DNA from: Escherichia coli
Lineage (GTDB): Bacteria; Pseudomonadota; Gammaproteobacteria; Enterobacterales; Enterobacteriaceae
Strand: one strand, 5' to 3'
Length of the DNA: 64,000 nt
Assembly (NCBI RefSeq): GCF_003334335.1
Contig: NZ_QOWQ01000008.1
The notes beneath the pieces are model-generated. The model saw only the letters and a list, made by a program, of their open reading frames with translations. It was not told the origin of the DNA and made no database searches. The translations under genes were made by a program, and so were the position numbers. How positions within the stretch are numbered: the first letter of the stretch is position 1; each line of letters starts with the position of its first letter. Shown here in pieces: positions 48,489 to 51,034 of the stretch.

Positions 48489-50687
48489 ATGTCGACTCCT
48501 GACAATCACGGCAAGAAAGCCCCTCAATTTGCTGCGTTCAAACCGCTAACCACGGTACAGAACGCCAACGACTGTTGCTGCGACGGCGCATGTTCCAGCA
48601 CGCCAACTCTCTCTGAAAACGTCTCCGGCACCCGCTATAGCTGGAAAGTCAGCGGCATGGACTGCGCCGCCTGTGCGCGCAAGGTAGAAAATGCCGTGCG
48701 CCAGCTTGCAGGCGTGAATCAGGTGCAGGTGTTGTTCGCCACCGAAAAACTGGTGGTCGATGCCGACAATGACATTCGTGCACAAGTTGAATCTGCGCTG
48801 CAAAAAGCAGGCTATTCCCTGCGCGATGAACAGGCCGCCGAAGAACCGCAAGCATCACGCCTGAAAGAGAATCTGCCGCTGATTACGCTAATCGTGATGA
48901 TGGCAATCAGCTGGGGTCTGGAGCAGTTCAATCATCCGTTCGGGCAACTGGCGTTTATCGCGACCACGCTGGTTGGGCTGTACCCGATTGCTCGTCAGGC
49001 ATTACGGTTGATCAAATCCGGCAGCTACTTCGCCATTGAAACCTTAATGAGCGTAGCCGCTATTGGTGCACTGTTTATTGGCGCAACGGCTGAAGCTGCG
49101 ATGGTGTTGCTGCTGTTTTTGATTGGTGAACGACTGGAAGGCTGGGCCGCCAGCCGCGCGCGTCAGGGCGTTAGCGCGTTAATGGCGCTGAAACCAGAAA
49201 CCGCCACGCGCCTGCGTAAGGGTGAGCGGGAAGAGGTGGCGATTAACAGCCTGCGCCCTGGCGATGTGATTGAAGTCGCCGCAGGTGGGCGTTTGCCTGC
49301 CGACGGTAAACTGCTCTCACCGTTTGCCAGTTTTGATGAAAGCGCCCTGACCGGCGAATCCATTCCGGTGGAGCGCGCAACGGGCGATAAAGTCCCTGCT
49401 GGTGCCACCAGCGTAGACCGTCTGGTGACGTTGGAAGTGCTGTCAGAACCGGGAGCCAGCGCCATTGACCGGATTCTGAAACTGATCGAAGAAGCCGAAG
49501 AGCGTCGCGCTCCCATTGAGCGGTTTATCGACCGTTTCAGCCGTATCTATACGCCCGCGATTATGGCCGTCGCTCTGCTGGTGACGCTGGTGCCACCGCT
49601 GCTGTTTGCCGCCAGCTGGCAGGAGTGGATTTATAAAGGGCTGACGCTGCTGCTGATTGGCTGCCCGTGTGCGTTAGTTATCTCAACGCCTGCGGCGATT
49701 ACCTCCGGGCTGGCGGCGGCAGCGCGTCGTGGGGCGTTGATTAAAGGCGGAGCGGCGCTGGAACAGCTGGGTCGTGTTACTCAGGTGGCGTTTGATAAAA
49801 CCGGTACGCTGACCGTCGGTAAACCGCGCGTTACCGCGATTCATCCGGCAACGGGTATTAGTGAATCTGAACTGCTGACACTGGCGGCGGCGGTCGAGCA
49901 AGGCGCGACGCATCCACTGGCGCAAGCCATCGTACGCGAAGCACAGGTTGCTGAACTCGCCATTCCCACCGCCGAATCACAGCGGGCGCTGGTCGGGTCT
50001 GGCATTGAAGCGCAGGTTAACGGTGAGCGCGTATTGATTTGCGCTGCCGGGAAACATCCCGCTGATGCATTTACTGGTTTAATTAACGAACTGGAAAGCG
50101 CCGGGCAAACGGTAGTGCTGGTAGTACGTAACGATGACGTGCTTGGTGTCATTGCGTTACAGGATACCCTGCGCGCCGATGCTGCAACTGCCATCAGTGA
50201 ACTGAACGCGCTGGGCGTCAAAGGGGTGATCCTCACCGGCGATAATCCACGCGCAGCGGCGGCAATTGCCGGGGAGCTGGGGCTGGAGTTTAAAGCGGGC
50301 CTGTTGCCGGAAGATAAAGTCAAAGCGGTGACCGGGCTGAATCAACATGCGCCGCTGGCGATGGTCGGTGACGGTATTAACGACGCGCCAGCGATGAAAG
50401 CTGCCGCCATCGGGATTGCAATGGGTAGCGGCACAGACGTGGCGCTGGAAACCGCCGACGCAGCATTAACCCATAACCACCTGCGCGGCCTGGTGCAAAT
50501 GATTGAACTGGCACGCGCCACTCACGCCAATATCCGCCAGAACATCACTATTGCGCTGGGGCTGAAAGGGATCTTCCTCGTCACCACGCTGTTAGGGATG
50601 ACCGGGTTGTGGCTGGCAGTGCTGGCAGATACGGGGGCGACGGTGCTGGTGACAGCGAATGCGTTAAGATTGTTGCGCAGGAGATAA
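48489..50687 (+). CDS. zntA: Zn/Cd/Pb-exporting P1B-type ATPase ZntA
   Basis: ORF track 732 aa; N-terminal GMDCAACA, transmembrane CPC, phosphorylation site DKTGTLT. Confidence 0.96.
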   Translation: MSTPDNHGKKAPQFAAFKPLTTVQNANDCCCDGACSSTPTLSENVSGTRYSWKVSGMDCAACARKVENAVRQLAGVNQVQVLFATEKLVVDADNDIRAQVESALQKAGYSLRDEQAAEEPQASRLKENLPLITLIVMMAISWGLEQFNHPFGQLAFIATTLVGLYPIARQALRLIKSGSYFAIETLMSVAAIGALFIGATAEAAMVLLLFLIGERLEGWAASRARQGVSALMALKPETATRLRKGEREEVAINSLRPGDVIEVAAGGRLPADGKLLSPFASFDESALTGESIPVERATGDKVPAGATSVDRLVTLEVLSEPGASAIDRILKLIEEAEERRAPIERFIDRFSRIYTPAIMAVALLVTLVPPLLFAASWQEWIYKGLTLLLIGCPCALVISTPAAITSGLAAAARRGALIKGGAALEQLGRVTQVAFDKTGTLTVGKPRVTAIHPATGISESELLTLAAAVEQGATHPLAQAIVREAQVAELAIPTAESQRALVGSGIEAQVNGERVLICAAGKHPADAFTGLINELESAGQTVVLVVRNDDVLGVIALQDTLRADAATAISELNALGVKGVILTGDNPRAAAAIAGELGLEFKAGLLPEDKVKAVTGLNQHAPLAMVGDGINDAPAMKAAAIGIAMGSGTDVALETADAALTHNHLRGLVQMIELARATHANIRQNITIALGLKGIFLVTTLLGMTGLWLAVLADTGATVLVTANALRLLRRR

Positions 50688-50765
50688 GGCAAACCGATCG
50701 CAACATTGAGCGCGATCGGTCCCCTCGCCCCTCTGGGGAGAGGGTTAGGGTGAGGGGAAAAGGCG
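50688..50765. repeat. palindromic intergenic repeat (boxC-like) downstream of zntA
   Basis: ACCGATCGC...GCGATCGGT hairpin followed by CCCCTCGCCCCTCTGGGGAGAGGGTTAGGGTGAGGGG; gives the spurious minus ORF 50581..50778 (PFPLTLTLSPEGRG). Confidence 0.6.
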
Positions 50766-50788
50766 GCATCGAAGCCAATCAGCCCCTA

Positions 50789-51034
50789 TCAACCGCCTTT
50801 ACGAATCAAATAACGATAAGGCAGTCCATCCGTCTCTTTAGCAACCAGTTCGTGTTCCATAAAGGTACAAAACCCAGGAATATCGCGGGTAGTGGCCGGA
50901 TCGTCGGCGATAATCAGCAACGTTTCGCCAGGCTGCATATTGCGCACGGTTTTGCGCACCATCATCACCGGTTCCGGGCAGCGCAGGCCAAGCGCGTCGA
51001 GTGTGTGGTCAGGGCTGGAAAAGAGATCGGTCAT
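50789..51034 (-). CDS. tusA: sulfur carrier protein TusA
   Basis: ORF track 81 aa; conserved CPxP cysteine (LRCPEPVMM). Confidence 0.93.

Follow-up and report, generated by a model that had tools for sequence, protein, structure and literature searches.

A solo boxC (PIT, TMECO) repeat unit in the zntA-tusA spacer of Escherichia coli and its possible role at mRNA 3' ends

The space between the convergent genes zntA and tusA of Escherichia coli is occupied by one solo type-A unit of the boxC family of intergenic repeats, also called PIT or TMECO, an identification that we regard as practically certain. This particular copy is an ordinary member of the family that has already been catalogued. 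For the locus as a whole, the best explanation, to which we give a probability of about 0.75, is a solo boxC unit that acts at the RNA level on transcript 3' ends and is not an intrinsic terminator of zntA. We propose a model where zntA and tusA would both be transcribed into the unit, whose very stable stem-loops would present a barrier to 3'-to-5' exonucleases. The 3' ends of the mRNAs would be fixed and protected there following read-through or Rho-dependent termination, as with REP elements. The narrower proposal, that this copy serves as a 3'-end cap for tusA and perhaps for zntA transcripts, is drawn by analogy with other boxC loci and is put forward tentatively, at slightly less than an even chance.

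Family membership and anatomy of the unit

The window, a 64-kb stretch of DNA, is from a K-12-like E. coli, and its positions 50540-50940 are 100% identical to the MG1655 and W3110 records. Window coordinates are those of NC_000913.3 minus 3,557,962, with the end of zntA (3,608,649, here 50687) as anchor (Table 1). The spacer between the zntA and tusA stop codons measures 101 bp and holds both a 9-bp hairpin and a G/C-rich motif. The first-pass annotation had placed these two one after the other behind zntA, and correctly so, as the arms of the hairpin are 100% complementary and the motif is matched exactly. Across this stretch, the annotation of NC_000913.3 has the zntA and tusA coding sequences only and no repeat feature. 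The boxC unit nearly fills the gap between the genes and accounts for the strong folding of the spacer on both strands (-48.6 kcal/mol, z = -3.6, for the plus strand; -58.6 kcal/mol, z = -3.7, for the minus strand).

Table 1. Features of the zntA-tusA spacer and its surroundings, in window coordinates
Feature	Position	Strand	Remarks
zntA coding sequence	48489..50687	+	stop TAA 50685-50687; from the ORF list and the RefSeq annotation of the identical K-12 stretch
Mechanically listed ORF, 65 aa (...PLTLTLSPEGRGD...)	50581..50778	-	reads through the repeat; not a gene
U-rich tail UUGCCUUAUCU	50682..50692	-	follows the 9-bp hairpin on tusA-sense RNA; overlaps the zntA stop codon
Whole boxC unit, solo type-A	50690..50769	+	5' flank, 36-nt core and 12-nt 3' flank
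Hairpin left arm ACCGATCGC	50693..50701	+	locus-specific; as such absent from the BIME-type and core-less alleles
Hairpin right arm GCGATCGGT	50712..50720	+	conserved type-A 5' flank, consensus GC.CG.ACGGTC
boxC / PIT / TMECO core, type 'A mm'	50722..50757	+	exact matches; Holder et al. 2015, Table 1 entry 16
Core: C-arm	50722-50731		
Core: loop TCT	50732-50734		
Core: first G-arm	50735-50744		
Core: loop TTA	50745-50747		
Core: second G-arm	50748-50757		
Unit 3' flank AAAAGGCGGCAT	50758..50769	+	variant of the consensus GAA.A.GCC.GCA; lost with the core in the core-less allele
8-bp inverted repeat	50759..50800		AAAGGCGG at 50759-50766 (boxC 3' flank) against CCGCCTTT at 50793-50800 (last tusA codons)
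tusA coding sequence	50789..51034	-	convergent with zntA; from the ORF list and the RefSeq annotation

Holder et al. (2015; PMC4666352) equate their TMECO motif with the previously named BoxC and with Hoyne and Maher's PIT element, and their Table 1 lists 23 BoxC/PIT/TMECO units in MG1655. Entry 16 of that table (CCCTCGCCCCTCTGGGGAGAGGGTTAGGGTGAGGGG, type 'A mm', 3,608,684-3,608,719, plus strand) corresponds to the core in the window, since the end of zntA sets the offset. We recovered all 23 published units at their published coordinates, at 18 loci of NC_000913.3. The motif CCCCTCGCCCCTCTGGGGAGAGGGTTAGGGTGAGGGG at 50721-50757 is an exact match, with 0 expected from 100 shuffles, and 50722-50756 fits the core pattern CCCTCNCCC N3-6 GGGNGAGGG N3 GGGNGAGGG exactly, with TTA as loop 2 (type A) and a loop 1 that reads either as CTCT with 9-nt arms or as TCT with 10-nt arms. 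The unit is therefore like boxC, PIT (Hoyne et al. 2000) and TMECO in core pattern, TTA loop, 'mm' subtype, intergenic site and multicopy occurrence; 'mm' denotes the one-mismatch subtype, and the zntA-tusA core differs from the family in nothing. The cores of entries 9, 19 and 22 are identical to it, and entry 9 adjoins fabI (envM), the gene in whose description boxC was first reported (Bergler et al. 1992).

A BLAST search with positions 50688-50800 found a match in every one of 5,426 complete E. coli genomes, with 19 places as the median, 35 as the maximum, and 21 in an MG1655 record. No further copy of the motif was found within the 64-kb window, as expected because the family has a density of about one copy per 200 kb (about 20 in 4.6 Mb); the motif is unique in the window only and not in the genome. 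The earlier suggestion of a boxC-type intergenic repeat is thus borne out both by entry 16 of the 23 and by genomic copy number. Every MG1655 copy, this one included, lies between annotated genes, and 16 of the 18 loci are downstream of at least one gene. At five loci A and B units are paired, alternating in orientation with characteristic linkers in a mosaic, BIME-like fashion, but the zntA-tusA copy is not one of these A+B inverted pairs; it stands alone, its linker truncated on either side.

The unit extends beyond its core. When the 15 type-A copies of MG1655 are aligned, the conserved stretch takes in about 20 nt before the core and about 13 nt after it, and in some copies another 15-18 nt on the 5' side (up to about 38 in total). 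The original boxC is likewise said to have been longer than the 36-nt core. The zntA-tusA copy fits the family consensus on both sides (5' AAAAA.G.GC.CG.ACGGTC, 3' GAA.A.GCC.GCA), and its right-hand edge is also the boundary of a 48-nt indel in the core-less allele described below.

The 9-bp hairpin is part of this anatomy. Its arms, ACCGATCGC and GCGATCGGT, are separated by 10 nt and fold as plus-strand RNA at -14.8 kcal/mol (z = -4.7), compared with -26.2 kcal/mol (z = -2.9) for the G/C motif, each much more stable than its shuffled controls. The first-pass annotation described a hairpin preceding the repeat; the hairpin is there, but it is not a separate element, as its right arm is conserved boxC 5' flank. 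The hairpin is the unit's own 5' flank paired with an adjacent, locus-specific inverted copy. This copy alone among those of MG1655 has the perfect stem: its 49-nt 5' flank folds at -10.4 kcal/mol (z = -2.4), whereas the flanks of the other 14 type-A copies fold at -0.6 to -6.4 kcal/mol with z mostly near zero. We considered whether the hairpin is a feature of the family and ruled this out, there being no comparable stem in those 14 copies or in the Pseudomonas copies described below.

The left arm ACCGATCGC resembles ACTGATGAC, found in the extended flanks of two other copies, alx-sstT and fimH-gntP.

Transcript 3' ends and the terminator question

The curated Term-seq data of Adams et al. 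(2021) contain no called RNA 3' end at 3,608,5xx-3,608,8xx, an absence that is weak evidence either way because the table lists only dominant ends (about 900-1,200 per condition). Neither zntA nor tusA appears in the TERMITe supplements. A minus-strand Rho termination region is placed at 3,607,955 (window 49993), inside zntA (Adams et al. 2021), so that minus-strand transcripts must traverse the spacer.

We then turn to the family, for which the other 17 MG1655 boxC loci were looked up by coordinate in the same Term-seq data. Four of them have a 3' end just past the Watson-Crick stem of the boxC core: lldD (3,781,065, plus strand, 4 nt past the stem), hrpB-mrcB (164,636, plus strand, 5 nt), ilvC-ppiC (3,959,467, minus strand, 4 nt) and the fepB leader (624,567, minus strand, 11 nt). 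The register was confirmed by finding the published 61-nt strings within the locus sequences, each string having its 3' end at character 51. On the basis of 3,110 listed ends, 552 strand-positions examined and a 12-nt window, the 4 ends observed compare with 0.185 expected (P = 4e-5); assuming a 5-fold enrichment of 3' ends in intergenic DNA raises this to P = 0.015, and a 10-fold enrichment to P = 0.12. The 4-5-nt register alone gives P = 5e-6, or P = 0.004 with ten-fold intergenic enrichment. At lldD the end scores 1.3 for intrinsic termination, on a scale where values from 3 upward count as predictive, and it is assigned to a Rho termination region. Rho-terminated transcripts are trimmed 3'-to-5' back to a stable stem (Adams et al. 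2021), and the boxC-adjacent ends at the four loci look like products of such trimming.

The arrangement at zntA-tusA recalls intrinsic terminators, including bidirectional ones between convergent genes, which are likewise stable G+C-rich stems. Unlike them, the zntA strand has no U-tract and the U-tract of the tusA strand is interrupted. That the boxC element is the intrinsic, Rho-independent terminator of zntA, with polymerase stopping at one or both plus-strand hairpins, is suggested by the two very stable stem-loops immediately 3' of the zntA stop, yet we find it very improbable. Neither plus-strand stem leads into a U-tract, as CCCCUCGCC comes after the 9-bp hairpin and AAAAGGCGG after the boxC stem, and a scan for the terminator consensus reports no site there. 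Published reporter assays are negative as well: to the extent that Holder et al. (PMC4666352) relate the work of Hoyne and Maher (2002), PIT elements had neither promoter nor terminator activity and no effect on RNA polymerase. The boxC-adjacent ends at other loci also score below the intrinsic-terminator threshold. Where the first-pass annotation had offered a 3' stabilizer or a terminator of zntA, the stabilizer is plausible in view of the mapped ends at four other boxC loci; the terminator does not hold up, and the terminator-like geometry that does exist is on the tusA strand.

On the tusA-sense RNA (minus-strand fold), to which the 8-bp inverted repeat AAAGGCGG/CCGCCTTT contributes a third stem, the first stem in order takes in the tusA stop codon, with the 3' flank of boxC as its other side; the boxC stem comes second and the extended 9-bp stem last. 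This last stem reaches about 11 pairs at -20.1 kcal/mol and runs into UUGCCUUAUCU, a geometry that would suit an intrinsic tusA terminator with the boxC core as a mere passenger. The terminator scan does not report this hairpin, as its 10-nt loop exceeds the loop limit of the scan. Further in favor of a tusA terminator, the perfect stem is constant in three K-type alleles while the 3' part of the spacer varies, most K-type genomes are nearly identical over the junction (counts below), and a terminator hairpin of Rfam, Hrs13, aligns with 19.7 bits (E = 0.006 in a 161-nt search). However, the U-tract is short and interrupted, with two uninterrupted U's only after the terminal U of the stem, and the Rfam score is far under the gathering score of 52. 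Nor is a 3' end called at this hairpin in the Term-seq tables of Adams et al. (2021), and the Rho termination region that lies beyond it on this strand implies that much of the transcription reads through. In addition, the perfect stem is missing from about 15% of E. coli genomes. On balance we think a tusA terminator unlikely as the explanation of the locus, and it is with the same reserve that we suggest that the 9-bp hairpin and UUGCCUUAUCU may add weak intrinsic termination of tusA.

Hrs13 (RF02631) is an Hfq-regulated Erwinia sRNA with two hairpins, the second followed by U's. The full model aligns to the minus strand, but at its score the likeness is one of shape and not of membership. 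Rfam returned only sub-threshold matches for the zntA-tusA element, Hrs13 being the best, and no gathering-level match for seven other boxC loci.

Alleles of the spacer and DNA-level readings

Three alleles cover 99% of the 5,426 E. coli genomes. The K-12 type, with zntA stop, perfect hairpin and boxC in succession, is found in 4,571 genomes (about 84%), and in 3,712 of these (81%) identity over the 69-nt junction is 99% or higher. A second allele, present in 537 genomes (for example Nissle 1917 and ST95), carries a 167-bp BIME between the zntA stop and boxC; its left-arm region reads AAACCGGTTTCAAGCAG and forms no perfect stem. The third, in 265 genomes, has an extra 102-codon hydrophobic ORF and a BIME and retains the 5' flank of the unit, but lacks exactly the core plus 12 nt (48 nt). 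We considered this core-less allele as an empty site and set the idea aside, since the allele keeps the family 5' flank and a core deletion is simpler. Some alleles have a mutated C-arm, and one is without the third arm. Among the three K-type alleles that were read (the window, L022 and L023) the perfect stem is invariant. The boxC unit accounts for the polymorphism of the spacer across E. coli lineages.

Compared without regard to direction, the K-12 and BIME alleles differ in that the former has no BIME and has ATCG in place of GTTTCAAGCAG, the replacement by which the left and right arms become exact reverse complements. From the sequences of the two alleles, we infer that this replacement was probably a quasi-palindrome change of the template-switch type. 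As other E. coli alleles of the spacer show a mutated C-arm, a lost third arm or the loss of the whole core, the zntA-tusA unit may well be a decaying selfish or neutral repeat with no dedicated cellular function. Local variability around TMECO motifs has been described (Holder et al., PMC4666352) and fits decay in some lineages.

The same polymorphism could be read as a consequence of activity at the DNA level. Holder et al. (2015; PMC4666352) favor such an effect, in the form of local instability: the G-rich strand, when single-stranded, would fold into an intrastrand triplex that stalls replication or repair and destabilizes the locus. Published CD and NMR data, which cover four TMECO types including 'A mm', show a stable single-strand triplex, and polymerase stops at it in vitro. 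Our locus is polymorphic too, with a BIME in one allele, the core plus 12 nt missing from another, and some degenerate cores. The double-stranded form stays duplex, however, and DMS footprinting in vivo showed no sign of a triplex. REP/BIME sequence and the extra gene, which vary independently, make up much of the polymorphism at this spacer, and the K-12 arrangement is kept, largely unchanged, in most genomes. Instability would in any case be a side effect and not a function. We therefore hold a DNA-level activity to be rather unlikely as the explanation, and favor an RNA-level effect of the boxC unit on 3' ends. A G-quadruplex reading of GGG-AGA-GGG-TTA-GGG-TGA-GGG was set aside, the published NMR of the full oligonucleotide showing a triplex.

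A different identity for the element, as REP/BIME or another enterobacterial repeat such as ERIC/IRU, deserves almost no credence. It is intergenic, palindromic and repeated, and the B2-type allele of the same spacer carries an adjacent BIME, but the sequence matches the boxC catalogue instead, NC_000913.3 annotates no such repeat over the stretch, and a search of the window that allowed up to 3 mismatches found nothing matching the REP consensus GCCKGATGCGRCG...CTTATCMGGCCTAC. The likeness is instructive all the same. REP/BIME and boxC are both short, G+C-rich, palindromic intergenic repeats found mostly downstream of genes, both build mosaics of alternating units with specific linkers, and both are associated with stable mRNA 3' ends, a property of REP that reportedly goes back to work by Newbury and colleagues in 1987. 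In sequence the two are unrelated, and the third arm that allows a single-stranded-DNA triplex is a feature of boxC. We know of no RAYT-type transposase associated with boxC.

There is hardly any prospect, too, that the opposite-strand ORF encodes a small protein. It is an open frame of 65 codons, but it has a TTG start, is antisense to the 3' end of zntA, runs through the repeat and has no RefSeq annotation, and its exact sequence, with three choices of start, is absent from a collection of 15 billion predicted proteins. The first-pass annotation had rightly called this ORF a spurious product of the repeat.

Distribution and wider meaning of the boxC core

The range of the core was scanned in one genome per species with the exact 21-mer GGGAGAGGGTTAGGGTGAGGG, which occurs in at least 120 stretches; the 21-mer is fixed by the query, so that its identity across matches is not itself evidence of constraint, and the bins in such a scan can be contaminated. 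Among the matches listed are two Pseudomonas genomes, each carrying dozens of copies, as well as Contendobacter, Polaromonas, Bradyrhizobium, Hyphomicrobiales, Deltaproteobacteria/Thermodesulfobacteriota and Verrucomicrobiales. Also listed are one Gracilibacteria genome, whose five copies lie on contigs of 82-489 kb, a rumen bacterium, and one short contig of a Methanomicrobiaceae bin. In nearly every listed match a complementary C-arm and a short loop, which were not part of the query, stand just upstream, and Pseudomonas copies share the 5' flank ...C(G/A)GTC with those of E. coli. The 21-mer is also present in at least 120 IMG/VR contigs and in 234 plasmid records, including rhizobial and Azospirillum replicons. 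Phage origin was considered and rejected, as only 3 of 50,697 curated phage records match, and the IMG/VR matches may include host DNA from prophage calls.

Pseudomonas sp. dw_612 has at least 33 copies on 32 of the listed stretches, and there inverted type-B and type-A cores bound a repeat whose length we estimate, from reading the alignment, at about 190-210 bp; Enterobacter asburiae is another carrier of dozens of copies. The core in Pseudomonas sp. dw_612 thus forms both inverted ends of a repeat, as in MITEs (for example Correia/NEMIS and ERIC); E. coli boxC copies differ in being solo or tail-to-tail units and not full elements. From the occurrence of the 21-mer with its upstream C-arm in distant taxa, plasmids and IMG/VR contigs, and from these inverted cores in one Pseudomonas genome, it is tempting to speculate that the boxC core serves as the conserved end-module of a family of MITE-like elements spread across bacterial phyla and moved by some enzyme, the solo units of E. 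coli being decayed remnants that now cap mRNA 3' ends much as REP elements do. The last part of this speculation draws on the four E. coli loci with ends mapped just past the stem, and as a whole we rate it as doubtful. We know of neither an autonomous partner nor a transposase for boxC. Holder et al. (PMC4666352), who found the motif in 262 proteobacterial genomes, reported no mobility genes near TMECO and no link to mobile elements.

With these matches the boxC core, previously assigned to proteobacteria, is seen to range well beyond them. For annotators, the practical consequence is that the zntA-tusA repeat should be masked together with the ORF that it creates. In a broader context, the Term-seq ends just past boxC stems at several loci would give a repeat that has been listed as of unknown function for 30 years a testable, REP-like role.

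Alleles, pairing and transcription of the zntA-tusA spacer

Across 5,426 E. coli genomes, the spacer between zntA and tusA (window 50688-50788; L019, L020 and L021) has three main alleles. The K-12 type is found in 4,571 genomes, a form carrying a BIME in addition to boxC in 537 (for example Nissle 1917 and ST95), and a form that lacks the boxC core but holds a BIME and an extra gene in 265. Between zntA and tusA, this core-less allele contains a very hydrophobic ORF of 102 codons, corresponding to WP_000385055.1, which is annotated as hypothetical and gave a single match against NCBIfam, scoring far under the cut-off.

In the window, the 3' flank of boxC, AAAGGCGG, and the final codons of tusA, CCGCCTTT, form a perfect inverted repeat. 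Each of the two boxC flanks therefore pairs with adjacent DNA beyond the conserved part of the unit. A GATC (Dam) site, embedded in CGATCG, is present in each arm of the 9-bp hairpin, the right arm being the 5' flank of boxC; the second site lies 18 bp from the first.

A Rho termination region has been reported antisense inside zntA (Adams et al. 2021). On the tusA strand it lies downstream of the spacer, at a distance of approximately 700 nt. Its position implies that transcription on the tusA strand reads through the spacer.

Positions of the features discussed in the text
Feature	Position	Strand	Remark
boxC 3' flank	window 50759-50766
tusA last codons	window 50793-50800
Dam sites	window 50696-50699, 50714-50717
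Rho termination region	MG1655 3,607,955 (window 49993)	-	inside zntA
102-codon ORF	L021:281-589	-	core-less allele
lldD 3' end (L013)	MG1655 3,781,065	+	4 nt past boxC stem
hrpB-mrcB 3' end (L003)	MG1655 164,636	+	5 nt past boxC stem
ilvC-ppiC 3' end (L015)	MG1655 3,959,467	-	4 nt past boxC stem
fepB leader 3' end (L007)	MG1655 624,567	-	11 nt past boxC stem
fepB leader, further 3' end (L007)	MG1655 624,680	-	5 nt ahead of type-B core

The boxC core beyond E. coli

Among the matches listed in a genome scan (L024-L143), an exact copy of the 21-mer from the boxC G-arms occurs outside Proteobacteria, in hosts that include Verrucomicrobiales, Gracilibacteria and one Methanomicrobiaceae bin, and in nearly all matches listed the C-arm lies just 5' of it. 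Pseudomonas sp. dw_612 (L056-L087) carries a multicopy repeat, by estimate 190-210 bp long with a conserved linker of about 85 nt, bounded on both sides by inverted boxC cores, type B and type A. This architecture appears MITE-like.

The 21-mer is also present in at least 120 IMG/VR contigs (viral scan, L144-L223 and beyond). Two Campylobacter phage records, MG065686.1 and MG065691.1, each match the E. coli boxC copy in three places at 98% identity. Such matches are odd for a Campylobacter host, and foreign DNA in the assemblies may be their source.

RNA 3' ends at boxC

The fepB leader has a very strong Term-seq 3' end ahead of a type-B core, following a small stem, GCGCA...TGCGC, within the 5' flank of that unit.

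Published Term-seq data place RNA 3' ends closely 3' of the boxC core stem at four other MG1655 loci. The end at lldD scores under the threshold for an intrinsic terminator and lies inside a Rho termination region. The literature searched contained no statement of a 3'-end-capping role for boxC. The ends at these four sister loci suggest that boxC, much like REP, serves to cap RNA 3' ends.
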